Sequence record: OR565852
Reading direction: 5' to 3' (one strand)
Source: Citrobacter phage phiNP
DNA length: 44,932 nucleotides
Part shown: piece after piece, positions 26,246 to 44,807 of the stretch
Position numbering within the stretch: position 1 is the stretch's first letter
Layout: the number at the start of each line of letters is the position of its first letter
Made by a program: the position numbers and the translations under genes
The notes under the pieces: generated by a model
Seen by the model: the letters and a program-made list of their open reading frames with translations, nothing else
Databases searched by the model: none
Told to the model about the DNA's origin: nothing

Positions 26246-27298
26246 TTATTTTTCTGGTAACGCTCTGATTTCTTCAACGGTCTGGTTAAACCGCTCTGTT
26301 TCCAGCTCGACGCCAATAGCCTTACGGCCTAAATCGATCGCCGCTTTTAACGTGGAACCGGAGCCCATGAAGAAATCAGCTACCACATCCCCGGGTCTGC
26401 TGCTCGCGCTGATGATTTGCTTCAGCATGTCAGCAGGCTTTTCGCAGGGATGTTTGCCGGGATAAAACTGGACGGGTTTATGCGTCCATACGTCGGTATA
26501 TGGCACGGCCACCGACACGGCAAAATACCGCCGAAGGGATTTGTACTCCTCCAGCAGTTCGGAATATTTACGGTTCAGTGACTGGTATGTTGCCACCAGT
26601 TGGTGATGAGGCTGCGCCAGTTCGGCACGCTGATGCTTCTCGATAGCGATCCGGGTGAAAAGCTCCTGCAATTTGAGGTAATCCGCTTCACCCGGCAGCT
26701 GCCACTGGCTGGAACCAAACCAGTGCGAAACCATGTTCTTCTTACCAGTGGCCTCGGTGATTTGTTTCGAGGTAACGCCAAGGGATTCCCGGGCATTCTG
26801 AAAATAGGTAATAAGCGGTGTCAGCACATGCTGTTTGAGTTCACCACATTTTGCCGCGTAACCATCGTCTTTGGGCTTGCATGGCCCCTGATAGTGTTCA
26901 GCAAACAGAACACGCTCAGTGGCCGGGAAATACGCGCGCAGACTTTCTTTATTGCAGCCATTCCAGCGACCGCTCGGTTTAGCCCAAATGATGTGGTTCA
27001 GGATGCTGAAGCGGTCGCGCATTAAGATTTCAATATCTGCAGCCAGCCGGTGGCCGCAAAACAGGTAAAGGCTACCGGCGGGTTTCAACACTCGCCAGAA
27101 TTCAGCCAGGCAGCGATCGAGCCAGCGAAGATAGTCTTCATCCCCTTTCCACTGGTTATCCCATCCGTTTGGCTTCACCTTGAAGTAAGGCGGATCGGTA
27201 ACAATCAGGTCGATGGAGTTATCAGGAAGGGTGGCGATGTAATGCAGGCAGTCAGCGTTGATTAACTCAACACTGTTTATTTTTACAGTATTTTTCAT
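26246..27298 (-). CDS. DNA methyltransferase (N4/N6 class, DPPY motif)
   Basis: 350 aa; IDLIVTDPPYF motif IV near the N-terminus and FFMGSGST AdoMet motif near the C-terminus. Confidence 0.75.
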   Translation of the reverse strand: MKNTVKINSVELINADCLHYIATLPDNSIDLIVTDPPYFKVKPNGWDNQWKGDEDYLRWLDRCLAEFWRVLKPAGSLYLFCGHRLAADIEILMRDRFSILNHIIWAKPSGRWNGCNKESLRAYFPATERVLFAEHYQGPCKPKDDGYAAKCGELKQHVLTPLITYFQNARESLGVTSKQITEATGKKNMVSHWFGSSQWQLPGEADYLKLQELFTRIAIEKHQRAELAQPHHQLVATYQSLNRKYSELLEEYKSLRRYFAVSVAVPYTDVWTHKPVQFYPGKHPCEKPADMLKQIISASSRPGDVVADFFMGSGSTLKAAIDLGRKAIGVELETERFNQTVEEIRALPEK

Positions 27299-27447
27299 AG
27301 ATCAGTAAGCGGGACTCTGATAGGCTCACTGTGCTTTAGCGCTAAAGCGGTGGGCCTCGGTTCGCTTGTGACCTCAAACATGAGCGAATGGCTGGTGGAG
27401 TGCTCCAACACCCACCAGCCGCCCATTTTCACAGCCAATAGCCACCA

Positions 27448-27711
27448 TTACTGGAGGCGCTTATAACATCCGAATTGATAAAACGAAAACCCCGCCATCA
27501 CTAATTGCGTGAGTATAAATTCACAGCGTGCAAGGCTCAGGTGTGTATTCTCTGCAATTTCCCCAGCGGTCGCTGGCGTTGTACTTAGTTCATTAAGAAT
27601 TGCTTTCGCTTCTTCTGTCATATCTTGCTGATTTAGCATGTCTTTTACCTTAAAAAATAGTGTGACATACAGATAACTCTGGTCGCCGACAGCAGCAAGA
27701 AGTCTTTGCAA
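27448..27711 (-). CDS. Hypothetical small protein
   Basis: 87-aa ORF just downstream of the putative late terminator; possible internal start at MLNQQD. Confidence 0.3.
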   Translation of the reverse strand: MQRLLAAVGDQSYLYVTLFFKVKDMLNQQDMTEEAKAILNELSTTPATAGEIAENTHLSLARCEFILTQLVMAGFSFYQFGCYKRLQ

Positions 27712-27716
27712 AAGAC

Positions 27717-27743
27717 ATAAAAAAACCCCGCCGAAACGAGGTT
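27717..27743 (-). terminator. Putative tR'-like intrinsic terminator downstream of the Q-like gene
   Basis: Minus-strand AACCUCGUUUCGGCGGGG followed by U7; sits where lambda has tR'. Confidence 0.4.
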
Positions 27744-27837
27744 AGATACAGTTTTGACAAAATATCAAATTAGCCTTAAATATGGCTCATTTTGTTGCAT
27801 TTTGCAAGCGCGTTAGACGGAGTTAGTGAAATTTAGG
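27744..27837 (-). promoter_or_regulatory. Putative late promoter (pR'-like) region
   Basis: Minus-strand TTGCAA followed about 17 nt later by a TATTTA-like hexamer; placement by analogy with lambdoid late control. Confidence 0.3.
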
Positions 27838-28533
27838 TCACATTTCCAGCGCATTAGCCACTTCCAGCCCTTCGCGCCTGATGAGGATCGTTTGCAGCGC
27901 CTGAGTGTCAAGCTCGACGAATGCCGCTTTAAATCTCGCCCAGTGCGATGCATACACACGTAACCAGGTTGAACGATCCACAGACATCATTCGCGCCAGC
28001 GCCGCACCGGCGTATTCTTTATATGTGTCATTGCTTCTGGCCGCAGCCACCTCCTGCGCTGCCAGCCAGACAAGACCGACCAGTTTTTTCACTACCCGTG
28101 ATTGCAGCTTCTTCTCTACCCTGCAATTCTGAAACTCATTCCATACATGCTGGCACATCAGCGTCTGGTACCTGAAGTTCAGATCGAAACCGTAGCAGTA
28201 ACGGATCCATGCCTGCTGGTAGTCATCCAGTGAATTGATTACCCGGCGCCACGGCGCGTAACTAAATTCCAGATCCTGCATTGGCGGGAACGGTCGCCGC
28301 CGGCTTCTCGTTTCCAGCACATAAACAGGCGTGGTTAATGCCTTCACAAGCGAGTGTCCACAGCCTTCCCCGCCCTCCAGTTCGATAAGAGGCTGCCCGC
28401 AGCGGGGCGTTTTATTTTTGTCTGCCGGTGGATGTTCGCTAAACGCCTGCAGTTGCCCCTTTGTCCCTTCAGATAAATTCGCCAGGGCGCGCTTTACTTC
28501 TATACGGGTATATTCAATGGCCTGTAAGTTCAT
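27838..28533 (-). CDS. Putative Q-like late-gene antiterminator
   Basis: 231 aa immediately upstream of the promoter/terminator region and lysis genes; Cys/His cluster (CGQPLIELEGGEGCGH). Confidence 0.5.
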   Translation of the reverse strand: MNLQAIEYTRIEVKRALANLSEGTKGQLQAFSEHPPADKNKTPRCGQPLIELEGGEGCGHSLVKALTTPVYVLETRSRRRPFPPMQDLEFSYAPWRRVINSLDDYQQAWIRYCYGFDLNFRYQTLMCQHVWNEFQNCRVEKKLQSRVVKKLVGLVWLAAQEVAAARSNDTYKEYAGAALARMMSVDRSTWLRVYASHWARFKAAFVELDTQALQTILIRREGLEVANALEM

Positions 28534-28554
28534 TCAGATTAGCGCTCCATACAC

Positions 28555-29646
28555 TTACGCTTTAACAATTACGCCGATCGCCAGCGCCCGATCCAGAAAA
28601 CGAAACAGCAGTTCCAGCTGTGTGCCATATTTCTGCTCGAACGCCGCTACATCGGCATGCAATTTGTCGTGGCACTCTCTGCACAGAGGGAACACGAACA
28701 GGTCATGGGCTTTGGTAGCAGTGCCACCCATCCCATGACCGATAACATGATGCGGATCGTCTGCCGGACGGCGACAACACTCGCAGGGCTGACTTTTAAC
28801 CCAGCGCGTATACTTCTCATTCTCCCAGCGGCGGCGCTTAGGCCGTAACATGAACGACTCCGGTGATTCAGGATCTGCGCTCAATGCAATAACCCTTGGC
28901 TGCTGCTCCTGCATTACCTGCTGATTTTCCTGTGGCCTGCACCTTTTTAACGATCCAGCCGTTTTTATCCTCCTCTGCAGGGCGACGGTTGGTCGGTTAT
29001 CTGCGGCAATAATGTCGCTTTCTTTATATACAGATGGGAACGGTTCATAGGGCATCTGCATCACTCTGGCTGCCAGTTCTTCCGGAATGGCATCTGCCAC
29101 ACCGACATAAATAGCCCACCAGCACAGCTCAGCGATCGACAATTCCCGCTCGCGATTAAACCGAAGGCCGACCAGCACGGTATCAATGATCCAGTCAATA
29201 ACGTTACGGCGCGCTATACCAGCCAACAGATCGGTTGACTGCTCACGAAGTTTGTTATCGCAGTGCCAGCAAAGCATCATCGCGCCCGGGGCGTGTCGCA
29301 TGGTCACCAGCTCATGATGGTGATAATCCGAGTGCGGGTACTGACATTCACCGATATTCCGCTCAAGCCAGTGATCCAGCCCGGAGAGACTACCCGCAGC
29401 ACGGATCACCCTCTCATCAGTGAAGAATGGGATCAGCGCTTCATCCTCCGCCAGCGGCTGCCGGGCATCAGGAACACGGCCGGTTGACAGCCTGGCCATG
29501 TTCTCCGGTTCGGACTCCACCAGCACGCGCCCCGCGGAGAAAAGGCGCATTAACTCTTTGCCCGGTTTGAGCAGTACCACGCCAAGACGTGGCACAACTT
29601 CAGGGGTTAACAGCGCTCTCATGCAACCTCCCGCTGCTGGTTGCAT
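28555..29646 (-). CDS. DUF968-like protein with C-terminal HNH/Zn-finger-like motif
   Basis: 363 aa; C-terminal CECCRR..HHVIGHGMGG..LCRECHDKLH. Confidence 0.55.
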   Translation of the reverse strand: MQPAAGGCMRALLTPEVVPRLGVVLLKPGKELMRLFSAGRVLVESEPENMARLSTGRVPDARQPLAEDEALIPFFTDERVIRAAGSLSGLDHWLERNIGECQYPHSDYHHHELVTMRHAPGAMMLCWHCDNKLREQSTDLLAGIARRNVIDWIIDTVLVGLRFNRERELSIAELCWWAIYVGVADAIPEELAARVMQMPYEPFPSVYKESDIIAADNRPTVALQRRIKTAGSLKRCRPQENQQVMQEQQPRVIALSADPESPESFMLRPKRRRWENEKYTRWVKSQPCECCRRPADDPHHVIGHGMGGTATKAHDLFVFPLCRECHDKLHADVAAFEQKYGTQLELLFRFLDRALAIGVIVKA

Positions 29647-31379
29647 AACTCGGGCAGGTTGGCTTCTACCAGCGCACGGGCAAACGGGGGCGGAACGGCG
29701 TTACCGCAGCGCGCTACCTGCTTGTCTTTTGCATAGCGCTGGCCGCGATAATCACGATCGATAATGTAACCTTCAGGAAAGCCCTGGGCCTTATACAACT
29801 CATGAGGCTGCAACATGCGCATGCCAATATCGACGATCTGGTAGTCGGCACCATCAACCGTTACCAGGCCGAAGCGATCATTGGTTGTGACGGTTCCCAG
29901 CGGTTCATCCAGCGATACGCCGCTTTTTTCATTTCCGTAGTACTTCATCAGGAAGGCGCGAACCTCTCCGATATGCAGACCGCCGGCGGTCACCGTAGGC
30001 ATGGGCTGATCCACTTTTCGACCGTCTTTGCAGGTACCGCGCAGATGAACCAGGTGTGAGGTCACAACAGCATGGTGATCAGTGGTCGTAACGGTATGCG
30101 CAGGTGCATCCATAGCGGCACCCGGCCCCGTATAATTACCGCCGAAGTGTTTCGCCAGAAAGGTGGTCACCAGCTGCGACTTTCCACCACCGCCAGCGGT
30201 TACTGTTCCATTGGGTTCATCAGCGCCGTGTCCGGTACTGTTACCAAACTGGCGGGCTATCATTGGCGCCACCAGGCAGGCGCGGGACTCTTTTAACACG
30301 GTGTGGGCCGGTTTATTTATCGCCCGCGGCTTCGCCTGATATTCGCTACCACCATTACCGGCGATAAACGGGGTAACGACAGCGTATCCATGGGTTTTGG
30401 TAATAGTCTGCAGCGGACTATCAATGCCCTGCCCACGAAAGCAGTCATATGCCGTGCGGCTGCTGGTGTGATTACACTTCACAATAAACGGTGTCGGGTT
30501 GTTCAGCACAAACCGCTCAATACCACGCGCAATGCGCTTCAGCGTATTTTCCGCCAGCAGCTTTGGGCGCTCAAAAATGCTCTGGCAGGGGATTGACCAG
30601 TCGATACACTCCGCCGCGGTACGCCATGGCGCCAGCCTGCCGCTCTGAACTTCCAGCGATTTAGGATCGCCATGTGTTGGCTCTGGCCAGTGAATTTCCT
30701 CACCATCACAGCGCATGACCATGAAGAATCGCTTGCGGATCGTCGGCGCGCCGAAATCGCAGGCTCGCAGTTCGCGATAATCGATGCCGTAGCCCAGCCC
30801 GTTAATAAGGCGCTGCGCCTGCTCGCTGCCTTTAGGTACAGACAGGAACTCGCACACCTCAGACAGGGCGGGATGATCCGCAGGTATGCCGGTGGATAGC
30901 ATGCCAACAAACGCCGCGAAGGTTTCGCCCGCGCGGGATGGATCCGGGCGCATTTCGTCTGCCAGCAGCGGCCCCCACGTTTTGAACTCCTCCACGTTCT
31001 CCAGCATCATGACACGCGGGCGCTTCGCCAGCGCCCAGCGTACTACTACCCACGCCAGACCGCGAATCTCTTTTTTTACCGGCTTAGCACCCTTCGCCTT
31101 TGAGAAGTGGCGGCAATCAGGGCTAAACCAGGCCAGGCCGACCGGATTACCACCAGTGGCCGCCAGCGGATCAACGTCAAACACGGACTCGCAGTAATGC
31201 AGGGTATCGGGGTGGTTAGTTTTGTGCATAGCGATCGCGTTTTCATCGTGGTTGATGGCAATATCCACGCTGCGCCCGATCGCCAGCTCGATCCCGGTAC
31301 TCGCGCCGCCGCCACCAGCAAAGTTATCAACGATAATTTCACGCATTGACGGCTCCCTGCATGCTGTAGACCAGACCAC
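29619..31379 (-). CDS. DNA cytosine-5 methyltransferase with long, internally repetitive variable region
   Basis: 586 aa; motif I DNFAGGGG, motif IV SPDC, motif VI ENV, C-terminal GNAV; ~280-aa variable region with six P..T(V/I)T..(V/L)VT repeats. Confidence 0.8.
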   Translation of the reverse strand: MVWSTACREPSMREIIVDNFAGGGGASTGIELAIGRSVDIAINHDENAIAMHKTNHPDTLHYCESVFDVDPLAATGGNPVGLAWFSPDCRHFSKAKGAKPVKKEIRGLAWVVVRWALAKRPRVMMLENVEEFKTWGPLLADEMRPDPSRAGETFAAFVGMLSTGIPADHPALSEVCEFLSVPKGSEQAQRLINGLGYGIDYRELRACDFGAPTIRKRFFMVMRCDGEEIHWPEPTHGDPKSLEVQSGRLAPWRTAAECIDWSIPCQSIFERPKLLAENTLKRIARGIERFVLNNPTPFIVKCNHTSSRTAYDCFRGQGIDSPLQTITKTHGYAVVTPFIAGNGGSEYQAKPRAINKPAHTVLKESRACLVAPMIARQFGNSTGHGADEPNGTVTAGGGGKSQLVTTFLAKHFGGNYTGPGAAMDAPAHTVTTTDHHAVVTSHLVHLRGTCKDGRKVDQPMPTVTAGGLHIGEVRAFLMKYYGNEKSGVSLDEPLGTVTTNDRFGLVTVDGADYQIVDIGMRMLQPHELYKAQGFPEGYIIDRDYRGQRYAKDKQVARCGNAVPPPFARALVEANLPELCNQQREVA

Positions 31380-32220
31380 CAGCCACGGTGATTATTTCGC
31401 TGGTGGGCATACGCTCAAGCCAGAGCTGATTGATGTTCGCCTTCAGCTTGTTCTGCTGGGCCAACTCCAGAGAATCCGCTCCCTCAACCTGATTGAATAC
31501 CAGGCCAACCTCCAGCGGCCAGATACGCGACTCCACTTCTGGCTGTCCCAAGCCAGCAGGCATAACGTCTTCCACCGGGGCTGGCGGCACCACTTTTTCC
31601 GCGGCAAATTGGGCCAGCGACATAAATGCCCGCCCCTTAGCCTCTAGATCACTGCGATGAATGTAGCTGAAACGCTCGCCCCGCCATGTCTTATCGAATA
31701 CCACTATGGCGCCAGCGAAAAATGCGCTGGTAGGCTGCTGTTTCTCGTCTGCCGGGATAAACCATGCAGGCAGGTCGAAGCCAATGCGGCCACGGATGAA
31801 AACAATATGATCAGCATCTTCAGGCCACCATGTTTCACTAGGTGCCGCTTTGATGAGGAACACATAGCGACCGCCCTTCTCACGCATGGCAGAGGCATAG
31901 CTCATGATATGACTCATGCCGGTGATCGCCTGCTTACCGTCGTATTGCGATCGGCTATAGGGCGGATTGCCGAACGCGGCGCCACCGATGGCGATCAGCA
32001 TTTCCGACCAATCCTGTGTCAGAGCGTTATCTTCGGCGGTGTACCAGACCGGGCATTTGGCGTTACTGTCGTCGGCGAACAAATCCAGCATCAGCGGCCC
32101 AAACATCGCATTGATGCCCCAGAACAACAGTTCCGGCGTGCGCCACTGATCGCCAACTTCTTTTAACTCGTGGACTGGCTTGCTACGTAGTTCAGCCAGC
32201 GCCAGGCAGTATTTATTCAT
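31339..32220 (-). CDS. Phage-type N6-adenine DNA methyltransferase (NPPY) with C-terminal extension
   Basis: 293 aa; WRTPELLF and FGNPPYS motifs of the phage Dam family; ~120-aa C-terminal extension of unknown function. Confidence 0.65.
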   Translation of the reverse strand: MNKYCLALAELRSKPVHELKEVGDQWRTPELLFWGINAMFGPLMLDLFADDSNAKCPVWYTAEDNALTQDWSEMLIAIGGAAFGNPPYSRSQYDGKQAITGMSHIMSYASAMREKGGRYVFLIKAAPSETWWPEDADHIVFIRGRIGFDLPAWFIPADEKQQPTSAFFAGAIVVFDKTWRGERFSYIHRSDLEAKGRAFMSLAQFAAEKVVPPAPVEDVMPAGLGQPEVESRIWPLEVGLVFNQVEGADSLELAQQNKLKANINQLWLERMPTSEIITVAGGLVYSMQGAVNA

Positions 32221-33089
32221 GAGCGAAATCCCGAGTTTTCTGGTAGTGAATAATCCACATCTTTGAAGGTTGCCCGCGCAGCAGGGCTGTGGTTGTTAAC
32301 CCACTCGCCATTTTTGCGCTCAGGGCGACCAGCCTTGTGCCATTTGTTCGCGGCCTGCAGGTAACCAGGGAATTTCGTTGGGTGAAACAGTGTCGTAGGT
32401 CGAAGGTACTCGGACATTTTAAAATCCTGCCCCCATTTCTCGGTCATGTACTCCACAACCAGAGTGAGTTCGTAGATGGTGAACCCCTCCCCCAGCCGGG
32501 CGCGAATATTCTCCAGCGACGTTTTCCCCACCTGATAACGGGATCCTGTTTTTTGGTTCAGAAAAGTCAGAACCTGTTTAGCCTGATCAGTGATCTCCAC
32601 AGCAGGGGCGGGTTGCGACGCAACCGGACAAGAAGTTTTTTTATCTGATGGATCAGTAGTTGATTTTACTGACGGATCCCCGCCAGATTCTGACGGGTGA
32701 AAACCGCCATTTTTATCAGATTTTGACGCCTCAATTTTTGACGGGTCAGATTTTGATGCGTCAGATTTTGACGGGTCAGAATCTGGCAGGTGAGAGAATG
32801 CCGCCGCCTGGAGTTTCCTCACATTAAGTCGATAAACATTGGATGCATTACGGTTACCCTGGCGGCGAGCGGTACGGGTCAACCACCCTTCAGCTTCCAG
32901 CTTTGCAATAGCCGTTCTGACTGTGCTGGACCCCGCCCCAATCTGGCGAGCGATAGTCTCAATGGACGGCCAGGAAACGCCTTCATCGTTACTGAAGTCT
33001 GCCAGGCGTGCCATGATTGCGACACTGGAAATCTTCATGCCAGCCGCCGCACAGCCATCCCAGACGTATGCAGATAATTTAACGCTCAC
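32217..33089 (-). CDS. Replication initiator protein (O-like) containing the origin iterons
   Basis: 290 aa; GTG start; N-terminal HTH-like region; central SDPSKSDASKSDPSKIEASKSD peptide repeats encoded by the iteron array. Confidence 0.6.
   Translation of the reverse strand: MSVKLSAYVWDGCAAAGMKISSVAIMARLADFSNDEGVSWPSIETIARQIGAGSSTVRTAIAKLEAEGWLTRTARRQGNRNASNVYRLNVRKLQAAAFSHLPDSDPSKSDASKSDPSKIEASKSDKNGGFHPSESGGDPSVKSTTDPSDKKTSCPVASQPAPAVEITDQAKQVLTFLNQKTGSRYQVGKTSLENIRARLGEGFTIYELTLVVEYMTEKWGQDFKMSEYLRPTTLFHPTKFPGYLQAANKWHKAGRPERKNGEWVNNHSPAARATFKDVDYSLPENSGFRS
32661..32790. repeat. Iteron array (putative origin of replication)
   Basis: Seven ~15-bp units of consensus TCAGATTTTGACGGG; five are contiguous from 32716 to 32790. 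Confidence 0.6.
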
Positions 33090-33265
33090 TTATCTACCCT
33101 CACGAATCTGGAACGAAACACGATCAGCGGTGCCGCACATTCCCAGTCATATCCTGGGCGGCGGTAGATAACACGCTGTCCAGTTGCGTCATAACCGATC
33201 ACATTTACGACAATACCGTGATGATCCCGGTAATATCGGTTCAGAGGTTGAATATGCTCTGTCAC
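33086..33265 (-). CDS. Hypothetical small protein (GTG start)
   Basis: 59-aa ORF found by manual translation; SD-like GGGGGG upstream; start and stop are translationally coupled to both neighbours. Confidence 0.3.
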   Translation of the reverse strand: MTEHIQPLNRYYRDHHGIVVNVIGYDATGQRVIYRRPGYDWECAAPLIVFRSRFVRVDK

Positions 33266-33266
33266 G

Positions 33267-34149: not shown

Positions 34150-34703
34150 GCGGATTTCTCCATACACATAGATTTATCTGCCACGACGCCCGGAGCTGCA
34201 CACTCGCGGGCGTCACTCTTTTCTGGCTGGCAGAAAACGCGGAAAAGCAGCGTTAAATGCTCCTGCCACTTAGCCATGACCTGATAGCTGTTCTCCTCTA
34301 TCTGCGCCCTTTCGGCATCGTCAATCACGCCGTCTGCTGTCGCCTTTCGCACATACTGAGAATGACGCCCGATCCATTCGACCGACTCCATCAGACGTTG
34401 ATTGATGTCGGCGTTATCAACTTCTTCCACGTCCGCCAGCGGCACGAATACGCCGTTTGAATGGCGCGCTATGGCATCGGCGATGTGGTTTGAGCCACCA
34501 GCGCTCTGCAGCACCATTGCCCAGCCCAGCGGGAAAACCTGGTCGCCGTCGGCACGCAGGCGGTTAAAGAGCGAATTTTCCGTAACATCAAGCCATTCAG
34601 CCGCCTCGGCGTATCCGCCAGGCAGTTCAGCGATCGTTTTTTTAATTGCTGCCACCAGCCAGGCTGGCTGACGTTCAACTTTCCACTGCGGTTCGTTACC
34701 CAC
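34146..34703 (-). CDS. Putative CII-like early regulatory protein
   Basis: 185 aa directly downstream of cro; assignment by position and weak recollection only. Confidence 0.35.
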
Positions 34704-34959
34704 GGCTATCCCCTTTTTTCTGTGGTGCAGCTTTAACGCTCTTCCCTGTAGGGTTTACATAACGCTGCGGGTACAAAATCTGGAGTTCGTCTATCTGGCC
34801 CGAATAAAACTTCACCAGCCTTTCAGCTACATCGAGAGAAGCAATTTGCTGTCCCCGTTCAATTCGGCTTAAGTTGGCAGGATCAATGCCCACCAAGTTG
34901 GCGACATATGAGAGTGTTAAATTTTGCGATTTTCGCAAATTTCTTAGCGGTGATTGCAT
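34696..34959 (-). CDS. cro: Cro-like HTH (XRE family) repressor
   Basis: 87 aa; HTH LTLSYVANLVGIDPANLSRIERG; divergent from cI. Confidence 0.7.
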   Translation of the reverse strand: MQSPLRNLRKSQNLTLSYVANLVGIDPANLSRIERGQQIASLDVAERLVKFYSGQIDELQILYPQRYVNPTGKSVKAAPQKKGDSRG

Positions 34960-35057: not shown

Positions 35058-35753
35058 ATGAACATAGGAAACCGCATTAGAGAATTGCGCCTCGCAAGAG
35101 GCATGAAAATTTCTGACCTTGCTGATGCTGTTGGTATTGACGGCGCGAACGTTTCTCGCGTAGAGACCGGTAAGCAAAAGTCATTTACTGAACAATCGCT
35201 TAGCAAATATGCAAATGCGCTCGGCGTTGATGTTGCTGAACTCTTTACACCTTCCATAAATGAAACTACTGTATACAAATCCAGTGAGAATAATCCAGTT
35301 TATGGAGAGGATGACCCGGTGTTTAGAGTCGAAATGCTTGATGTCAGTGCCAGCGCTGGCATGGGTTTTATACAGGGTAGTGATGTCATCGATGTCATCA
35401 GATCGATTGAATACAACAGCGAACGGGCGGTCGCTCTGTTTGGTGGAAGAACGCCAGATACCGTTAAAGTGATCAACGTTCGCGGTGATAGTATGGCTGA
35501 TACTATAGAGCCAGGTGACCTAATCTTTGTTGATGTTTCAATTAATGAATTTGATGGTGATGGCATTTATGTGTTTGGTTTTGACGAGAAAATTTATGTC
35601 AAACGGTTACAGATGATTCCCGATAAAATTCTGGTGATATCTGATAATCCCAAATACAGAGAGTGGTCAGTTGATCAATCTAACGAAGACCGTTTTTATG
35701 TGTTTGGGAAAGTGATGCTTAGCCAATCACAAGCAATGAAAAGACACGGATAA
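35058..35753 (+). CDS. cI: CI-like repressor (HTH_XRE + S24 LexA-like peptidase domain)
   Basis: N-terminal HTH; C-terminal S24 motifs VRGDSMADTIEPGDLIFVD and KIYVKRL; likely start at ATG 35058 within track ORF 34974-35753. Confidence 0.85.
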   Translation: MNIGNRIRELRLARGMKISDLADAVGIDGANVSRVETGKQKSFTEQSLSKYANALGVDVAELFTPSINETTVYKSSENNPVYGEDDPVFRVEMLDVSASAGMGFIQGSDVIDVIRSIEYNSERAVALFGGRTPDTVKVINVRGDSMADTIEPGDLIFVDVSINEFDGDGIYVFGFDEKIYVKRLQMIPDKILVISDNPKYREWSVDQSNEDRFYVFGKVMLSQSQAMKRHG

Positions 35754-35795: not shown

Positions 35796-35803
35796 ATACC
35801 CTA

Positions 35804-37117: not shown

Positions 37118-37155
37118 ACCGCTGACAACTAATTCACTGCCACCAATTCGATCAT

Positions 37156-38001: not shown

Positions 38002-38139
38002 TTGCTCAGCCTTAATTGCCCTGCCCCGCGGGGCAATTAGTGAAGCGTAATTCATTTAAATATCGCCATCTGGCGAGGGATTCGTGCAACCAAAAATCAG
38101 CCGAAGGTGCAGCTGCGAATAAATGGAGAAATAAAACCG

Positions 38140-38682
38140 ATGAGCTACATACAGACATTATCAGGCAAGAAATTCGACTATGTGAATGCCACTGTTGACG
38201 ATATTGAGATCGAAGATATAGCGACCGCGCTTTCCCATATCTGCCGCTTTGCCGGCCACCTGCCGGAGTTCTACTCCGTGGCCCAACACTCAGTTCTGTG
38301 CAGCCAGCTGGTAGAGCCTGAGTTTGCCTTTGAAGCGCTGATGCACGACGCCGCAGAAGCGTATTGTCAGGATATTCCCGCACCGCTTAAAGCCCTGCTG
38401 CCGGACTACCGCCGGATTGAGGCGTTTGTCGACGAACTGATCCGCTTTAAATTCAATCTGCCGCTCACACAGTCTCCTGTAGTGAAATATGCCGATCTGA
38501 CAATGCTGGCTACCGAACGCCGGGATCTGGACATTGACGACGGTACATCGTGGCCCATCCTCGAAGGAATCCCCACCAGCGACCTTATCCAGATCGCTCC
38601 TCTTCGCCCGGGCCAGGCTTACGGACTTTTCATGACCCGCTTTAACGAACTGATGGAGCTGCGCGCATGCAACACCATATGA
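38140..38682 (+). CDS. HD-domain phosphohydrolase (YfdR-like 5'-deoxynucleotidase)
   Basis: HD-domain signature (H..HS..LCSQL...HDAAEAY); likely start MSYIQTLSGKKFDY at 38140 within track ORF 38107-38682. Confidence 0.65.
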   Translation: MSYIQTLSGKKFDYVNATVDDIEIEDIATALSHICRFAGHLPEFYSVAQHSVLCSQLVEPEFAFEALMHDAAEAYCQDIPAPLKALLPDYRRIEAFVDELIRFKFNLPLTQSPVVKYADLTMLATERRDLDIDDGTSWPILEGIPTSDLIQIAPLRPGQAYGLFMTRFNELMELRACNTI

Positions 38683-38867
38683 AAGTAAAAGAACTGGTTG
38701 CCGCGGCACGCATGGCAGCGTCTGACCTTCCACCAGCAGCGGCACAGTTAATGCGTGAAGTCGCCACCAGACTGGATGTGACCTTTGTTGCCCTGAGTGA
38801 AGCTCTGGATCAGCGCGTCACCCTTATGGCAGAGAACGAAATTTTACGCGGGGATAAATCGCAATGA
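38667..38867 (+). CDS. Hypothetical small protein
   Basis: 66 aa, in operon context. Confidence 0.35.
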   Translation: MQHHMKVKELVAAARMAASDLPPAAAQLMREVATRLDVTFVALSEALDQRVTLMAENEILRGDKSQ

Positions 38868-39190
38868 ACGAACAAACTACAGTTAAACACCTCCATTTCT
38901 ACGGTGCCAGCGATGATCTGCTGGAATGCGAAGGCGCGATCCGCGAGGAGATTGGTTGCTATAACTCTCCAGGCATCTATCACCTCAAATCCGCCGAGGG
39001 TGAAATGCAGGTTGTCGGTTATTACCTCGACTCCGGGCTGTGGAGCATCGGAATCAGCCAGGTCGCCGAAGATACGCCGCTGCCAGCGTGGCCCGTCACT
39101 TACGCCATGCATGAGCGTGGTTACAGTGTCCAGCTCACCATCACTGTGCCGGACGACGCCATTCTGGTTTTGTCAGAGGAAGATGAATGA
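38864..39190 (+). CDS. Hypothetical protein
   Basis: 108 aa; start overlaps the stop of the upstream ORF. Confidence 0.4.
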   Translation: MNEQTTVKHLHFYGASDDLLECEGAIREEIGCYNSPGIYHLKSAEGEMQVVGYYLDSGLWSIGISQVAEDTPLPAWPVTYAMHERGYSVQLTITVPDDAILVLSEEDE

Positions 39191-39918
39191 GCATTACCCT
39201 GCATAACGCCGACTGCTTCGATGTTTTTCCGACGATTGCCAGCGGTTCCGTAGACATGGTGTGTGCGGATATTCCCTACGGTACCACGCAGTGCTGCTGG
39301 GATTCGGTGCTTGACCTCGAGGTGATGTGGCATGAACTGTACCGCATCGCCAAGCCGTCAGCGGCAATTGTCCTGTTTTCGGCTCAACCGTTTACCGCGG
39401 TGCTGGTCGGCAGCAACCTGGCGGACTGGCGATCCGAGTGGATTTGGGAAAAAGGCAACGCCACCGGCTTCCTTAATGCCAAAAAACAGCCGTTGCGTGC
39501 CCATGAAAATATAGAGGTGTTTTATCGTCGCCAGCCGACATACAACCCGCAGTTTACCCATGGTCATGCGCGCAGAACATCGAAGCGCAAAACCGTCAAT
39601 TCGGAGTGCTACGGCAAAGCGCTGACGCTGACTAAGTATGACTCAACCAGCCGGTACCCGCGCGATGTGCAGTTTTTCTCGAGTGACAAGCAAACCGGTA
39701 ATTTCCATCCCACCCAGAAGCCGCTGGCGCTGGTTCAGTACCTGATCGAGACCTACAGCAACCCCGGCGATACGGTGCTGGATTTCACAATGGGAAGCGG
39801 TACCGCAGGAGTCGCCTGCCTGCGTGTCGGGCGCTGCTTTATTGGCATTGAGAAAGACACCTCAATATTTCAGGTCGCGCGTCATCGTATAGGGACTAAG
39901 CAGGAGCATGCAGCATGA
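39187..39918 (+). CDS. DNA methyltransferase (N4/N6 class)
   Basis: 243 aa; DIPYG motif-IV variant near the N-terminus, FTMGSGT AdoMet-binding motif near the C-terminus. Confidence 0.7.
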   Translation: MSITLHNADCFDVFPTIASGSVDMVCADIPYGTTQCCWDSVLDLEVMWHELYRIAKPSAAIVLFSAQPFTAVLVGSNLADWRSEWIWEKGNATGFLNAKKQPLRAHENIEVFYRRQPTYNPQFTHGHARRTSKRKTVNSECYGKALTLTKYDSTSRYPRDVQFFSSDKQTGNFHPTQKPLALVQYLIETYSNPGDTVLDFTMGSGTAGVACLRVGRCFIGIEKDTSIFQVARHRIGTKQEHAA

Positions 39919-40112
39919 AGATCCGCTGTTTTTTCGGGCTTCATAAATGGGTGCTGTTCAAGAAAGAGCTTCACCCATATCAATCTCTTAACGGACTGCA
40001 GCCAACTATTATTTTCCACTATGGGTGTAATGGCTGCGGCAAGACCAGAACAGAGACTCGCGAAGAGGGTTACTGGCATTCTTTTAAACCATCAGATTTG
40101 GAGCACATGTAA
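39915..40112 (+). CDS. Hypothetical small Cys-rich protein
   Basis: 65 aa containing CNGCGK; coupled to neighbours. Confidence 0.3.
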   Translation: MKIRCFFGLHKWVLFKKELHPYQSLNGLQPTIIFHYGCNGCGKTRTETREEGYWHSFKPSDLEHM

Positions 40113-40679
40113 TGAACCACCTTATGATCGACCTAGAAACGATGGGTAATAAGCCTGCTGCGCCAATTGTCGCGATCGGCGCTGTGTTTTTCGACCCGAA
40201 AAGCGGTGAGCTGGGCGCCGAGTTCTATGTGGCCGTCAACCTCGCCAGCGCCATGGATCAGGGTGCTACCCCTGACGGTGACACGATCCTGTGGTGGCTG
40301 AAGCAATCAGCGGAAGCTCGCGCTGCTATTTGTACCGACGACACTAAGAACATCGCCGAAGCGCTCTCCGAGCTTAGGTCATTTATTAGCCGTAACTCTG
40401 ACAAACCGCGTTATCTGAAAGTCTGGGGCAATGGCGCCAATTTCGACAACGTTATTTTGCGTTCAGCCTATGAACGCGCCGGCCAAACCTGCCCGTGGCA
40501 ATTCTGGAACGACAGCGACGTGCAGCACCATGGTGCTGCTCGGCAAACAGCTTGGTTTCGATCCAAAGCGCGATATGCCATTTGATGGTGTAGCCCACAA
40601 CGCACTGGCCGATGCCCACCACCAGGTGAAATATGTATCGGCAATCTGGCAGCGACTATTGCCCGCCAGCGCCGAATAA
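40112..40679 (+). pseudogene. DEDDh 3'-5' exonuclease interrupted by a frameshift
   Basis: Exo I (MIDLETMG) and Exo II (GNGANFDNV) motifs in frame of ORF 40112-40585; Exo III motif (HNALADAHH) in the overlapping +1 ORF 40431-40679. Confidence 0.5.
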
Positions 40680-40709
40680 TACCCCTAATAGCCCGGGTGC
40701 AGCCGGGCA

Positions 40710-40928
40710 ATGGAGAAATTTATGCTGAGCCTCGATTGTGTTCCCATCTCAACTTATTGCAAAGAGACAGGCGAAACTCCTGATGCGATCAACAAGCGCG
40801 TACAGCGCGGTGTGTGGCGTGAAGGGGTTCAGGTGCTGAAAGTCGAAGGCGTTAAGGAGAGATGGATAGATCTTAGTGAGGTTGCAAAATGGGCCAGACA
40901 GAATCGCCTAAACTCCCGCGCGGCGTAA
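40710..40928 (+). CDS. xis: Excisionase-like protein
   Basis: 72 aa immediately upstream of and overlapping the integrase gene. Confidence 0.55.
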   Translation: MEKFMLSLDCVPISTYCKETGETPDAINKRVQRGVWREGVQVLKVEGVKERWIDLSEVAKWARQNRLNSRAA

Positions 40929-42055
40929 CCATCAGGAAACATCGCAACGGTCAAACCATCAATATTACTTTTACATATAAAGGGGTGAAATGCCGTGAGC
41001 CTCTTTCTAATCTGGACGTAACCCCTAAAAATATCAAATACGCCGAGCGCACACTCGGCGAAATCCATAACAAGATCGAAAGGGGAACGTTTGTTTACGC
41101 GGAATACTTTCCCCGTTCTACCCGATTAAAAATTTTCGGAAACGCTGCCGCAGGAAAAACGGTGAAGATGTATCTGGATGAGTATCTGGTGATCTGCGAA
41201 ACGAGGAAGCTTTCCCCTTCGACAATAGGCGGGTACAAGAAATGCCGAAGCGCATTGTCATCACTTCATATTTATCCTGCAAGTGAGTTGACGCCGGCTG
41301 CATTGAAGACATGGATCCAGAACCAGAAAACGACATTGAAGACCATCCGAAACCAGTTGTCATTCCTGCGTTCTGCATTGGATGAAGCAGTGACAGATGG
41401 TGTGCTTCAGATTAACCCTGTATCTCTGGTAACAGCCTCACGATACCAAAGTGATAAATCAGAGGCAGAAAGTAGTTATGTGGTTGATCCGCTATCACCA
41501 GCAGAAGTTGATGCTTTGCTCTCTGCTACTGGCAATAAGCAGTGGGAGAATCTTTTCCGGTTCGCGATACAAACAGGGCTGCGTAGTTCCGAATTGTGTG
41601 CTCTTCGTTGGCGTGATATCGACTTTGTAGGGAAGACTGCCCATATCCAGAGCGCCAGTGTTGTTGGTGTGATCAAAGGGACCAAGACAAAAGCAGGTAC
41701 CCGTAAAGTTGAACTCACAGATGAAGCAATGTCGGCTCTGATAAATCAGAAACCGTTCACGTTCATGAAGGGCGCTACTGTCTTTGAGGATCCAAAGACC
41801 AATAAGCCGTGGGCAAGTGCTGATGCAATTAGAAAAAAGGCATGGGTGCCGACATTGCGAAAGGCTGGTATTCGGTACAGAAACCCATATCAGACTAGAC
41901 ATACATTCGCCACATGCCATATCAGCCGGGGAACAAACTTGTTCTGGCTTGCGACTCAAATGGGACATAAAGGCCCAGAGATGCTTTTCCGTCACTACGG
42001 CTCATATCTGAAGGAATATGATGGACAAACAAGCCTGAAGAAGATAAAAATATAA
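40889..42055 (+). CDS. int: Tyrosine integrase
   Basis: 388 aa; N-terminal arm-binding-type segment (LPRGVTIRKHRNGQ) and C-terminal catalytic region (RHTFATCHI...HYGSY). Confidence 0.85.
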   Translation: MGQTESPKLPRGVTIRKHRNGQTINITFTYKGVKCREPLSNLDVTPKNIKYAERTLGEIHNKIERGTFVYAEYFPRSTRLKIFGNAAAGKTVKMYLDEYLVICETRKLSPSTIGGYKKCRSALSSLHIYPASELTPAALKTWIQNQKTTLKTIRNQLSFLRSALDEAVTDGVLQINPVSLVTASRYQSDKSEAESSYVVDPLSPAEVDALLSATGNKQWENLFRFAIQTGLRSSELCALRWRDIDFVGKTAHIQSASVVGVIKGTKTKAGTRKVELTDEAMSALINQKPFTFMKGATVFEDPKTNKPWASADAIRKKAWVPTLRKAGIRYRNPYQTRHTFATCHISRGTNLFWLATQMGHKGPEMLFRHYGSYLKEYDGQTSLKKIKI

Positions 42056-42058
42056 TCC

Positions 42059-43846
42059 ATGTCTGAATTATTGGCCGCAATTTGTGGCCATTTCATGGAA
42101 CAAGGTACAAACATGGCAAATCCAATAACCAAACTAAAAAAAATAAACGTTGTAAAATTTCGAGGACTAAAAAATATAAATATAGAATTTGGTTCGCGAC
42201 TAACTGTTATTTGTGGTAAAAACGGCACATCTAAATCGACAATTCTTGGTATTATCGCCCAAATTTTTAGTTTTACAAAAGATCTGTCTAAGAACCCCGA
42301 GGTTGATTTAACACAATATAAGACATTAACTAATGGCACCTTCAAGTCAGCTTTCAGTGAACATTTTAGACTTTCAGAACAATTTGATACTGCAGGTTCA
42401 ATGGAAGTCAGGATTAGTGTTTATGATGGTGCATCTAACAAACATCTTGAAAAGCTAACATTGGGTCTATACAGCTCCAGTGACAGGGATAAATCAAGGC
42501 CAATAGTCAGGGGCAATGATTCCATACCGGGGAAAAACCAAAGTAGAAACGTCACTCATCCAGTTATTTTTCTAAGCTTAGCAAGACTTCTCCCTATTAC
42601 TCTACGGACTGATTACTCAACAAGGGATGTTCAGTATATCAATGAAAACGCAGATGATATAAGAATAATGAGCAATCAACTCTTACTTAAGAATAATGGG
42701 TGCTCAGTAACAGCCACGAAAGGGACGATCGATTCAATGGTCGTACACGGCGATAATTACGACCATCAATCAGTCTCTGTTGGTGAGGATAATGTTGGAC
42801 AATTAATTCAAGCAATATTTTCCTTTAAAAGGCTAAAAGAACTTTATGACGATTATCATGGAGGTATTTTATTAATTGATGAAGCGGACGCAGGTCTTTT
42901 CCCTGCTGCTCAGTTAGAATTAATTGACATTCTAGCTAAAGCAGCTAAAAAATATGACTTGCAAATAATCATGACTTCTCACTCACCATTAATAATAGAA
43001 GATATTTTCAATCGTTCCAAACAAGATGCCAACGGATTTAAAACAATATATCTGACAGATACTTATGGTGATATTAAAACAAAAGACAATCTATCATGGG
43101 CCGATATCAATGCTGATTTGCATGTTGAAACTGTAAAAATAAATGATGAGATTAGCCTTCCAAAAGCCAACGTATATTTTGAAGATAAAGAAGGCTTCGA
43201 TTTTTTCAAACAATTGATAATTGATAGAAGAATAAACAGAATATTGAATCCATTAGGAAACATAAATATTAGTTGTACTGCTATCCTAGATTTAATGGCT
43301 AGAAAAGTCCCTGAGTTTACTAACAAAAGCCTAGTTGTCTTAGACGGTGATGTTGCTCTCGATAACAGTGACAATGCTAAAAAAGCGAAAAAAGAGAGAA
43401 GCTTATGCTTGCTTCCAGGCATTCTTCCCCCAGATCAAATGATTTTTGAATTCTTATATAACTTACCTCCAGACGATATATATTGGAACAATAAAAATAG
43501 ATTTACAAAAGCAGTATTTATGAAAATAACAAAAGACATAATTACAACATTAAAAATAAGTAACTATCCTATTGATTTACTAAATTCTATAGAGAATTAT
43601 AAAAAATCAAACAAAAACCATGGCGGAGTGGTTAGAAAACTATTTAAAGATTTTGTCCATACGCCTGAGTTCCTAGCACAAGTAAAAGGGCGAGTTAAAG
43701 ATAATCCTTATCGATATTGGGTCGAGAAACACCCCGTAGAATCCGATAATTTCAAGCATGAATTAATCAAAAACCTTAAAATTATTATGACAAATGGACA
43801 TGGCGTTGACTCTGCTACCATCACTTCGTATCTGTCTGGCAACTAA
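42059..43846 (+). CDS. OLD-family-like ATP-dependent nuclease (ABC ATPase + putative TOPRIM)
   Basis: 595 aa, AT-rich; Walker A GKNGTSKST, Walker B ILLIDEADAG, H-loop MTSHSP; C-terminal candidate TOPRIM Glu (YFEDKEG) and DxD (VVLDGDVALD). Confidence 0.65.
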   Translation: MSELLAAICGHFMEQGTNMANPITKLKKINVVKFRGLKNINIEFGSRLTVICGKNGTSKSTILGIIAQIFSFTKDLSKNPEVDLTQYKTLTNGTFKSAFSEHFRLSEQFDTAGSMEVRISVYDGASNKHLEKLTLGLYSSSDRDKSRPIVRGNDSIPGKNQSRNVTHPVIFLSLARLLPITLRTDYSTRDVQYINENADDIRIMSNQLLLKNNGCSVTATKGTIDSMVVHGDNYDHQSVSVGEDNVGQLIQAIFSFKRLKELYDDYHGGILLIDEADAGLFPAAQLELIDILAKAAKKYDLQIIMTSHSPLIIEDIFNRSKQDANGFKTIYLTDTYGDIKTKDNLSWADINADLHVETVKINDEISLPKANVYFEDKEGFDFFKQLIIDRRINRILNPLGNINISCTAILDLMARKVPEFTNKSLVVLDGDVALDNSDNAKKAKKERSLCLLPGILPPDQMIFEFLYNLPPDDIYWNNKNRFTKAVFMKITKDIITTLKISNYPIDLLNSIENYKKSNKNHGGVVRKLFKDFVHTPEFLAQVKGRVKDNPYRYWVEKHPVESDNFKHELIKNLKIIMTNGHGVDSATITSYLSGN

Positions 43847-43854
43847 TTGATTGA

Positions 43855-43891
43855 AAAGGGCTTTATATGATGGCCATAAAGCCCTTTTTTT
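43855..43891 (+). terminator. Rho-independent terminator between the OLD-like and Dam-like genes
   Basis: Perfect 12-bp inverted repeat AAAGGGCTTTAT/ATAAAGCCCTTT followed by a T-run. Confidence 0.6.
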
Positions 43892-43925
43892 GATATACTT
43901 TAGACTTGACATTTAGAGGTATCAT

Positions 43926-44807
43926 ATGCGTTTTAACACCCCACTTCGTTATCCTGGCGGCAAAGGCAAGCTTTCTAATTTCATGCTTCGGATTATTGAA
44001 GATAATAAGCTTTCGCCTATACATTATGCAGAGCCATATGCTGGGGGTGCTGGTTTAGCGCTGAAGCTGTTACACTTAAATGTAGCTGAAAAAATCATTC
44101 TTAATGATATTAATATCTCAGTTTATGCTTTTTGGCACAGTGTATTAAATAATGCAGATCATTTATGTGCTTTAATTGAGGATACTGAAGTCACAATGGA
44201 TGAGTGGTTCAAACAGAAAGAAATAATTAATCATCCAAGAGACCATGATATGCTAACAATTGGTTTTTCTACCTTTTTTCTTAATAGAACAAATCGTTCT
44301 GGAATATTAAAAGGCGGTGTAATTGGTGGTAAAAATCAAGAAGGGCAATGGAAACTTGATGCTCGTTATAACAAGAGCGATTTAATTTCTCGGATTCAGA
44401 AAATATCAAAAAACCGTGAAAGAATAGATTTGTATAACATGGATGCAATTGATTTCATAAAAAAAATAGTTGTTCAATTGCCTAAAAAATCATTAACATA
44501 TTTAGATCCGCCATATTATATAAAAGGTAAGGGATTATATATCAATCATTATGAACATAGTGACCATGTTAATGTTGCAAAAGTAGTGCAGCATGATATT
44601 AAAACACCGTGGATTGTTTCTTACGATAACACTCCTGAGATCCAAGGTATGTATAAGGCATCATCATTAGTGTATGGAATAAACTACAGTGCTCAAGATC
44701 GATATAAGGGCTCAGAAGTGATGTTCTTCAGTAAACGATTGAAAGTCTTTAAAACCGATGATCCAACTAAGGTAAAAGCACCTACCAATAAAAATGCTAT
44801 GAGCTAG
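43926..44807 (+). CDS. Dam-like (D12 class) N6-adenine DNA methyltransferase
   Basis: 293 aa, AT-rich; N-terminal YPGGKGKL, AEPYAGGAG AdoMet motif, FFLNRTNRSG, DPPYY catalytic motif. Confidence 0.75.
   Translation: MRFNTPLRYPGGKGKLSNFMLRIIEDNKLSPIHYAEPYAGGAGLALKLLHLNVAEKIILNDINISVYAFWHSVLNNADHLCALIEDTEVTMDEWFKQKEIINHPRDHDMLTIGFSTFFLNRTNRSGILKGGVIGGKNQEGQWKLDARYNKSDLISRIQKISKNRERIDLYNMDAIDFIKKIVVQLPKKSLTYLDPPYYIKGKGLYINHYEHSDHVNVAKVVQHDIKTPWIVSYDNTPEIQGMYKASSLVYGINYSAQDRYKGSEVMFFSKRLKVFKTDDPTKVKAPTNKNAMS

Follow-up and report, generated by a model that had tools for sequence, protein, structure and literature searches.

The Citrobacter rodentium prophage ΦNP encodes five DNA methyltransferases: probably four lytic-cycle solitary enzymes and one half of a defence cassette related to PD-λ-5

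The temperate phage ΦNP of Citrobacter rodentium (Citrobacter phage phiNP, sequence record OR565852) encodes five DNA methyltransferases (MTases), referred to here as M1 to M5, within the 44,932-bp stretch of DNA that was analysed as a whole (the window). The original prediction regarded all five as orphan enzymes with no obvious adjacent restriction endonuclease, which would provide the phage with broad self-protection against host restriction, or with epigenetic control of its own genes and those of the host. The present analysis points instead to two classes of enzyme, with M1 to M4 probably being solitary MTases of the lytic cycle, and M5 one half of a probable defence cassette related to PD-λ-5. 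Self-protection is still the best reading of M1 to M4, considering their positions in the operons and the homology of M1 with M.EcoGII, but it does not extend to M5, for which the role of modification partner in a defence cassette is the more plausible one, because it is of the PD-λ-5_B type and is paired, in a conserved manner, with an ABC-ATPase/TOPRIM gene. The absence of an adjacent endonuclease is similarly valid for M1 to M4, whose flanks have no evident nuclease partner, but is not supported for M5. Each component of this stack of genes belongs to a known kind.

The five open reading frames (ORFs) lie exactly where they were originally placed (Table 1), and each one matches a DNA-MTase family of Pfam above the gathering score, with further support for the assignments from NCBIfam and PADLOC. 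The ORFs are full length, their S-adenosylmethionine (SAM) motifs are intact, and the catalytic motifs are present. A motif scan of all the ORFs and reading frames of the window found no sixth candidate amino-MTase. The coordinates of the loci L003 and L004 were converted to those of the window by the addition of 33925.

An exact 25-bp direct repeat, GGTTCAACTCCCGCCAGCTCCACCA, is found at the two ends of the window, and is the reverse complement of the attP/attB of ΦNP as published (PMC6456863). The published ΦNP is a 44,907-bp functional myovirus, which is spontaneously released, forms plaques, and is integrated in the 3' end of ssrA, and which also lysogenises Escherichia coli K-12 (PMC6456863; PMC3072379). 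There is one integrase gene in the window, and the C. rodentium ICC168 chromosome (FN543502) contains a gene for precisely the same protein as M5. The window is one complete, functional, and already published prophage, ΦNP of C. rodentium ICC168, and the single att pair and single integrase bear out the claim that all five genes lie within one prophage. As the window is a single att-bounded prophage, its low-GC right end, and all else within it, is phage-borne. The location of M5 and the ATPase gene outside the prophage, as suggested by their low GC content, is ruled out by the att repeats, and also by the varying downstream flanks of the pair elsewhere (glaH, another integrase, or an insertion sequence plus lifA). 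A tandem satellite island is also ruled out, given that no third copy of the att repeat was found at up to three mismatches, with none being expected by chance.

The assignment of M5 to the PD-λ-5_B family is based on a PADLOC match with an E-value of 2.8e-123, in which residues 1-283 align with positions 1-284 of the 291 positions in the PD-Lambda-5_B profile. The protein has the motifs YAGGAG and DPPY (at residue 194), and is 89% identical to the copy found in E. coli JJ1886, while its identity with copies that have a ParB/HEPN or ATPase partner is 51-56%. PD-λ-5 itself is a two-gene defence of broad range, validated by experiment, which blocked nine of the ten phages tested, required a Δmrr host for its cloning, and was interpreted by its authors as a compacted prophage version of a restriction-modification plus abortive infection (RM+Abi) system (PMC9519451). 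As described by Vassallo et al. 2022, this system combines a ParB/HEPN protein (A) with a methyltransferase (B). M5 is a full-length match to B, and both systems are prophage cargo, but the A subunit of PD-λ-5 is replaced in ΦNP by an ABC-ATPase/TOPRIM partner.

The gene of this partner ends 79 bp upstream from the start of M5. Its N-terminal portion contains the Walker A, signature, and Walker B motifs of an ABC ATPase, while in the C-terminal domain, E357/D358 and D411/D413 (E...DxD) are invariant in 34 homologues, down to 49% identity. The spacing of these residues matches that of E319/D375/D377 in the single-gene defence HEC-04, where they are essential by mutation (bioRxiv 10.1101/2024.01.29.577857). 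When analysed by itself, the C-terminal domain matches no Pfam or PADLOC model, and its assignment as a TOPRIM domain is made with moderate confidence. The PADLOC matches of the whole protein are weak and partial (HEC-04, E 2.5e-16; PtuA, E 2e-20), and PD-Lambda-5_A is absent from the best 25 of its 114 matches, the weakest of these 25 having an E-value of 6.8e-12; the genuine PD-Lambda-5_A proteins of E. coli, Pseudomonas, and Enterovibrio have values of 4e-43 to 4e-207. The likeness of the partner to the ABC-ATPase-TOPRIM nucleases, that is, HEC-04/IbfA, the OLD family, PARIS AriA-AriB, and Gabija GajA, is also weak and partial, and while HEC-04/IbfA act alone, the partner of M5 is found together with a D12 MTase in every context examined. 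The cassette lies between int and attR, outside the lytic operons, and is AT-rich (GC 0.34-0.41). The terminator predicted in the gap between its two genes has a z-score of -4.0, and none of 200 shuffled sequences was as stable.

The pairing of the ATPase and the MTase is conserved well beyond ΦNP. An int-ATPase-MTase block of approximately 85% nucleotide identity is present in 85 complete E. coli genomes, at ssrA, beside glaH or another island, while a diverged pair is located beside intE at an icd-site prophage. Further pairs are found in the P2 gpA-portal defence hotspot, with the gene order reversed, and at the Q-holin junction of a Yersinia prophage, as well as in Pseudomonas, Enterovibrio, and Halomonas. 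The ATPase and the MTase show parallel divergence, with identities of 87/47/25% and 89/56/51%, respectively. M5 also shares 51-53% identity with the B subunits from bona fide PD-Lambda-5 A+B pairs in E. coli prophage hotspots, and a three-gene cluster of A, B, and the ATPase-TOPRIM gene is found in both Pseudomonas yamanorum (L014 1470-5731) and Enterovibrio norvegicus (L015 4001-8209), with an unassigned 525-aa protein taking the place of PD-Lambda-5_A in Halomonas (L019 1350-5716). The existence of the three-gene clusters, and of both types of pair, suggests that a larger system has been compacted in more than one way, with the A + B version being PD-λ-5, and the B + ATPase-TOPRIM version being that of ΦNP. 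Together, M5 and its partner most likely constitute a PD-λ-5-related defence module expressed in the lysogen.

The remaining four genes are found in quite different surroundings. M1 lies at the Q-lysis junction, as originally described, between Q with its tR'-like terminator, on one side, and the holin gene, on the other. The Q-holin slot is the place occupied by the Stx genes in the Stx phages. The order of the motifs in M1 is that of a beta-class enzyme, with DPPY at residue 35, a central target-recognising domain (TRD), and FMGSG at residue 310, and the PF01555 profile is covered over its full length. In a full-length comparison with the M.EcoGII sequence of PMC11551740 Table S1, M1 is 78% identical and 89% similar over 348 aligned residues, with two gaps, the two proteins having 350 (M1) and 349 (M.EcoGII) residues. 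M.EcoGII is a non-specific adenine MTase, which is prophage-borne, silent in the lysogen, and harmful if constitutive (PMC5778455; review PMC12707154). Both M.EcoGII and M.EcoGI, from prophages of E. coli O104:H4, belong to the same family of lambdoid phage MTases as M1, a family encoded between Q and the lysis genes in sequenced phages, and homologues that are approximately 80% identical to M1 hold the same Q-holin position in SfV, cdtI, mEp460, phiP27, and the Stx2 phages. The 22% divergence between M1 and M.EcoGII includes the TRD region, and while M1 is part of a demonstrably functional phage, M.EcoGII is found in a cryptic prophage. By homology, M1 would produce near sequence-independent N6-methyladenine (m6A), and its position behind Q and the terminator is consistent with late, induction-dependent expression. 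The candidates for a cryptic nuclease beside M1, namely Q, the holin, and a small winged-helix-like ORF, were discarded, as none is of the restriction type. This small ORF (27448-27638, - strand), located between the tR'-like terminator and M1, would encode approximately 63 aa from the ATG at 27638, and has a weak similarity to the winged helix of DprA (E 1.2e-4).

M3 and M2 are located in the early-right operon, behind the replication gene. The M3 protein scores 201.9 bits against TIGR01712 (phage_N6A_met), for which the equivalog-level cut-off is 97, and has the motif NPPY at residue 85, which, together with its PF05869 membership, confirms its description as a phage-type NPPY adenine MTase. 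It is 78% identical, over its full length, to Sb44 of phage ST64B, with which it shares the 85-aa C-terminal extension, and 72% identical, over 210 aa, to the dam genes of the cdtI, mEp460, and Stx2c phages, although the extension is not found in the 210-aa forms of the Stx phages. The phage Dam relatives typed in E. coli methylomes, M.EcoGV and M.EcoVT2, are GATC-specific (PMC6602927), and M3 probably has the same specificity. The M3-type gene is labelled "phosphoadenosine phosphosulfate reductase" in NC_004313 (ST64B), NC_031940, NC_009514 (cdtI), and PP925821/27, which looks like a propagated misannotation, since the M3-type genes match PF05869/TIGR01712.

The replication gene and M3 share 4 nt, and the stop codon of M3 overlaps the ATG of M2 by 8 nt. 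On this basis, M3 and M2 are read as translationally coupled behind the replication gene, and would be delayed-early genes, because the overlaps tie both to the replication gene, with the DUF968 gene and Q coming after them.

The C5-cytosine MTase ORF of M2 is present as first described, but its start is most likely the ATG at 31346, which gives 575 aa, as in the homologues, rather than the GTG at 31379, to which the ORF extends (586 aa). Motifs I, IV, VI, VIII, IX, and X follow one another in the canonical order (FAGGGG, FSPDCRHFS, ENV, TIRKR, RMLQPHELYKAQGFP, and GNAVPP), and FAGGGG, FSPDCRHFS, ENV, and GNAVPP are kept in 118-120 of the 120 homologues. In motif IV, an Asp residue is inserted between the Pro and the catalytic Cys, and the same arrangement is found in 119 of the 120 homologues. 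The interval between motifs VIII and IX, which is approximately 300 aa long, contains six tandem units of approximately 35 aa, each with the pattern (D/E)xPxxT[VI]T, followed by a Gly-rich/polar turn, and then a hydrophobic strand. The PxxT[VI]T modules occupy residues 322-493, in the numbering of the 586-aa form, and the units resemble the "TL" core of the TRDs of C5-MTases. The homologues, with 57-96% identity in their catalytic cores, have between four (507 aa) and nine (695 aa) units, and 23 types of module are inserted, deleted, and exchanged. The order is ABCDEF in ΦNP, for example, and ABCHDEF, AOPCDEF, AGQPCDE, ABEF, or IGBCHDKEF in its homologues. The temperate Bacillus phages SPR, φ3T, ρ11, and H2 encode multispecific C5-MTases with several TRDs per polypeptide (PMC12707154). 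Like these enzymes, M2 has one catalytic core and an expanded variable region with swapped modules, although its family is found in Gram-negative hosts, and its motif IV has P-D-C in place of P-C. By analogy, M2 may be multispecific through its TRD-like modules. The neighbouring DUF968 gene, which has a weak HNH similarity, is ruled out as the cognate nuclease of M2, because the JJ1886 prophage also carries it while lacking a C5 MTase, and its HNHc_6 match is below the cut-off.

M4 is located in the early-left operon, as proposed originally. The divergence of the CI and Cro-like genes defines lambda-like early-left (+) and early-right (-) operons, and M4 lies downstream from the CI gene, in the order yfdP, yfdQ, yfdR, two small ORFs, M4, a small ORF, an Rv2179c-like exonuclease, a possible xis, and int, with a 4-nt start/stop overlap with the ORF on each side. 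The protein has the FxGxG element (FTMGSG), but its motif IV, DIPY at residue 28, departs from the canonical (D/N/S)PP(Y/F/W). This is not a lesion, however, because D[LIVM]PY is the norm in the subfamily. In 120 close homologues, for example, DIPY was found in 111 and DVPY in eight, while the 151 aligned sequences formed by M4 and 150 distant 50%-cluster representatives include 88 with DLPY and 37 with DPPY. The possibility that M4 is a dead enzyme was rejected on the basis of this family-wide conservation. The flanking genes, which are small ORFs with no family matches and the Rv2179c-like exonuclease, were also rejected as cryptic nucleases, as none is of the restriction type.

The closest context for the element as a whole is provided by the ssrA prophage of E. 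coli JJ1886 (sequence type ST131), and by approximately 85 other E. coli genomes, which share the att site, the early-left genes, the integrase, and the ATPase-MTase cassette. The JJ1886 prophage has M1-, M3-, and M5-type genes at the positions found in ΦNP, but lacks M2 and M4, and thus has three MTases rather than five. It also has the lambda-like tail of a siphovirus, in contrast with the Mu/P2-like contractile tail of ΦNP, and RnlAB rather than HicAB at its ssrA-proximal end. M1-, M2-, and M3-type genes are found in the E. coli phages Flotzy and Eeyore, and in the Klebsiella phage Kp4866-6. From this comparison of sequences, ΦNP appears to sit at the upper end of a mosaic pattern that is itself common, and not to be an element of another kind. 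In a Yersinia enterocolitica prophage (L017 415-9731), the ATPase-TOPRIM and MTase pair is inserted in the Q-holin interval, with an orientation opposite to that of Q and the holin. With Mom and a C5 MTase of 686 aa encoded in addition, this is a further lambdoid prophage with multiple modification genes.

A second cargo block is found at the ssrA-proximal end of ΦNP (295-1835; GC ~0.42), the position that contains RnlA/RnlB in the JJ1886 relative. The 12-mer TGACCCCGCCCC has one copy near the left end of the phage, at 583-594 of the window, and is also found three times, with an exact 40-bp spacing, in the host DNA beyond attR (L004 11567, 11607, and 11647; ~45.5 kb in the numbering of the window), where the triplet is located upstream from an IS3-family element.

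Table 1. Coordinates of the principal features of the ΦNP prophage in the 44,932-bp window.
Feature	Coordinates	Strand	Evidence or remarks
attL core, 3' end of ssrA (tmRNA gene), 25 bp	1..25	+	exact repeat of 44908-44932; identical to published ΦNP attP/attB (PMC6456863)
DinI	295-540		cargo block between attL and tail-fibre genes
HicA toxin	643-822		cargo block between attL and tail-fibre genes
HicB antitoxin	846-1256		cargo block between attL and tail-fibre genes
Hexapeptide-repeat acetyltransferase	1281-1835		cargo block between attL and tail-fibre genes
Holin, lambda S family, first lysis gene downstream of M1	25736..26068	-	PF05106 Phage_holin_3_1, E 1.6e-16
M1, beta-class N6-adenine MTase, M.EcoGII homologue	26246..27298	-	PF01555, 146.6 bits
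tR'-like intrinsic terminator between Q and M1 (predicted)	27724..27743	-	terminator scan; 8-bp GC-rich stem + 7 U, dG -9.6 kcal/mol
Antiterminator Q	27838..28533	-	PF06323, E 6.9e-35
DUF968 (YdfU-type) protein, weak HNH similarity, neighbour of M2	28555..29646	-	PF06147, 240 bits; HNHc_6 below cut-off
M2, C5-cytosine MTase, 575 aa, six TRD-like modules	29619..31346	-	PF00145, 73.5 bits
M3, phage Dam-family N6-adenine MTase, 85-aa C-terminal extension	31339..32220	-	PF05869, 149.3 bits
Replication-initiation/DnaD-like protein, head of M3-M2 string	32217..33089	-	PF09524, PF13730, DnaD_N
Cro-like gene, divergent from CI	34696-34959	-	
CI-type repressor (helix-turn-helix + S24 peptidase)	35058..35753	+	Pfam families on called genes of L003/L004
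M4, small beta-class amino-MTase, motif IV DIPY	39187..39918	+	PF01555, 95.7 bits; DIPY at residue 28, FTMGSG
Rv2179c-like DEDD 3'-5' exo(ribo)nuclease, two genes downstream of M4	40112-40585	+	PF16473, E 3e-56
Tyrosine integrase	40889..42055	+	PF12167, PF00589
ABC-type ATPase + TOPRIM-like C-terminal domain, M5 partner, 577 aa	42113..43846	+	alternative ATG 42059 = 595 aa
Intrinsic terminator hairpin + T-run, ATPase gene/M5 gap (predicted)	43853..43891	+	14-bp stem, dG -16.3 kcal/mol
Promoter-like site for M5, extended -10, overlapping terminator	43871-43899	+	consensus match
M5, D12-class (alpha) N6-adenine MTase, PD-λ-5_B family	43926..44807	+	PF02086, 65 bits; PADLOC PD-Lambda-5_B
attR core	44908..44932	+	direct-repeat partner of 1-25

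The arrangement of these genes supports a model, considered reasonably probable, in which lytic anti-restriction (M1 to M4) is combined with defence (the M5 cassette), with the timing of expression, the specificities, the nuclease activity, and the defence phenotype all being predicted from the sequence. M4 in the early-left operon, M3 and M2 in the early-right operon, and M1 at the head of the Q-dependent late operon would all be under the control of the repressor, so that they would not be expressed in the lysogen, and would be turned on following induction or infection. The replicating DNA of the phage would then be methylated prior to packaging, and would enter the next host already protected against type I-III restriction. 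M1 would add near sequence-independent m6A, and M3 would probably add m6A at GATC, while M2 would add 5-methylcytosine (m5C), possibly in several motifs, and M4, a further m6A or N4-methylcytosine (m4C) motif. This arrangement of M1 to M4 fits the "Trojan horse" model, in which orphan modifiers of degenerate sites are expressed only at the exit from the cell (PMC12707154), as well as the richness of mobile elements in solitary MTases, which are very frequent on these elements and are interpreted as antidotes to restriction-modification (R-M) systems (PMC4176335). The M5 cassette, by contrast, would be a lysogen-expressed, R-M/Abi-like defence related to PD-λ-5, in which the ATPase gene would have its own terminator, and M5, its own promoter-like site. 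M5 would mark the DNA of the host and the prophage as self, or restrain the nuclease, and the ATPase-TOPRIM protein, a putative OLD/HEC-04-like nuclease, would attack or abort superinfecting phages.

The restriction sites of ΦNP are weakly consistent with a reliance on modification, given that no avoidance of GATC, CCWGG, or the common 4-6-bp palindromes was found in the phage. In fact, GATC (232 sites, 174 expected) and CCWGG (142 sites, 104 expected) are over-represented, as are CCGG, GCGC, and CTGCAG. There is, however, a single EcoKI site (AACN6GTGC), where 5.7 would be expected. In the published plating data, ΦNP performed about equally well on MG1655 (McrA+, McrBC+, Mrr+, EcoKI+) and on ER2507, which lacks mcr-hsd-mrr. 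This cannot be taken as evidence of self-protection, because the absence of EcoKI restriction is explained equally well by the single EcoKI site. It has also been reported that ΦNP adsorbs to DH5α, where it neither plaques nor lysogenises, and that its plating on ER2507 and LE392 was poorer after growth on MG1655 (PMC6456863). These effects of the DH5α, ER2507, and LE392 hosts might be tied to the modification or defence genes of the phage. In a nanopore methylome study of C. rodentium, GATC was the only motif reported, and all of the GATC sites tested were methylated (PMC12805903).

A number of points weigh against the two-class model. The papers on ΦNP (PMC6456863 and PMC3072379) are silent on methylation and methyltransferases. 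The defining partner of PD-λ-5, PD-λ-5_A, is not found in the window, and the interval between int and attR contains no other candidate ORF, while the promoter calls, including that of M5, are consensus matches that are no more frequent than in shuffled sequence. The plating on MG1655 might also be read as showing no sign of the type IV restriction that would be expected for DNA heavily modified with m6A and m5C. In addition, near-complete methylation of adenines by M1 would make M3 and M4 seem redundant, unless timing is important.

Some of the same evidence could be accommodated by other readings of the cassette. HEC-04 and IbfA function as single genes, the strong terminator between the ATPase gene and M5 makes a single transcript improbable, and PADLOC also matches M5 to its generic type II and orphan MTase models, all of which would be expected if the ATPase were an independent HEC-04/IbfA-like defence that shares a cargo slot with M5, and all five MTases, M5 included, were orphan anti-restriction enzymes. 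This is considered unlikely, however, as the pair is kept in every context examined, that is, at different integration sites and hotspots, in the reversed order, and in other genera, and the ATPase and the MTase diverge in parallel. The MTase family of M5 also provides the B subunit of a validated two-gene defence, and M5 lies beside attR, outside the lytic operons, unlike M1 to M4. It is more doubtful still that the ATPase-TOPRIM/M5 pair is mainly an addiction module, which would stabilise the prophage through post-segregational killing. The architecture of the pair is R-M-like, HEC-04 is toxic when induced (bioRxiv 10.1101/2024.01.29.577857), and R-M systems do stabilise mobile elements (PMC4176335), but the pair is found in the classical phage defence hotspots (P2 gpA-portal, the Q-holin junction, and the int-att junction), and the related PD-λ-5 protects against nine of ten phages. 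The addiction and defence roles are, in any case, compatible with each other.

For the solitary enzymes, the principal competing idea is a role in the life cycle of the phage, either in the control of packaging or replication, as in the Dmt/pac of P1, or as epigenetic switches of lysis-lysogeny or of host genes. M3 is built into the replication operon, GATC is over-represented in ΦNP (232 sites versus 174 expected), and phage Dam enzymes with life-cycle roles have been documented (PMC12707154), while a prophage MTase that changes the phenotype of the host in Staphylococcus aureus is indicated by a JCI 2025 paper, as it appears in the reference list of a citing paper. Even so, the host itself methylates all of the tested GATC sites (PMC12805903), which would make such a role for GATC superfluous in C. 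rodentium, and neither the near non-specific M1 nor the multi-module M2 is well suited to site-specific regulation. The JJ1886 relative, moreover, gets by without M2 and M4, and a life-cycle role is, overall, improbable as the explanation of the solitary enzymes. The effective number of MTases would be lower than five if some were inactive relics, with M4 and M2 being the candidates, the former for DIPY in place of the canonical (D/N/S)PP(Y/F/W), and the latter for its P-D-C motif IV and its repeat-laden variable region. In this context, M.EcoGI/GII-type and other prophage MTases often have no detectable motif in the methylomes of lysogens (PMC6602927), although such silence is what would be expected of lytic-cycle genes. 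Most of the 150 distant representatives have D[LIVM]PY, and FSPDCRHFS is found in 119 of the 120 homologues of M2, which points to purifying selection, and with all five ORFs at full length and their SAM motifs intact, decay of this type is very unlikely.

With the two-class model retained, a more ambitious proposal can be put forward, tentatively and with more doubt than conviction, in which the cassette is a distinct, unnamed, methylation-coupled defence system, and M2 belongs to a large family of multispecific C5-MTases, encoded by Gram-negative phages, that evolves by the shuffling of mini-TRDs. The cassette would be an alternative two-gene "compaction" of a system composed of ParB/HEPN, MTase, and ATPase-TOPRIM components, as found in Pseudomonas and Enterovibrio, with an OLD/HEC-04-like nuclease, in place of an ordinary restriction enzyme, gated by adenine methylation. 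The M2 family, with its four to nine shuffled mini-TRD modules, would represent multispecific "master-key" methylases, analogous to those of the Bacillus phages.

The solitary MTases of phages are a recognised anti-restriction strategy, and the parts of these findings that merit follow-up are the pairing of the ATPase-TOPRIM protein with the MTase, and the shuffling of the modules in M2. ΦNP is experimentally tractable, because it is a functional, plaque-forming, temperate phage, which infects and lysogenises E. coli K-12, and it offers, in one genome, both the division of labour among four differently timed MTases and the specificity of M2. If both parts of the more ambitious proposal were true, ΦNP would be a tractable, K-12-infecting phage that unites near-universal m6A, multi-site m5C, and a methylation-dependent defence. 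The M5 cassette also bears on the mechanism of PD-λ-5, a defence of broad spectrum, and on the way in which OLD/HEC-04-like nucleases spare self DNA. In C. rodentium, which is commonly employed to model infection in mice, M5 may add to the whole host genome a methylation motif that depends on the prophage.

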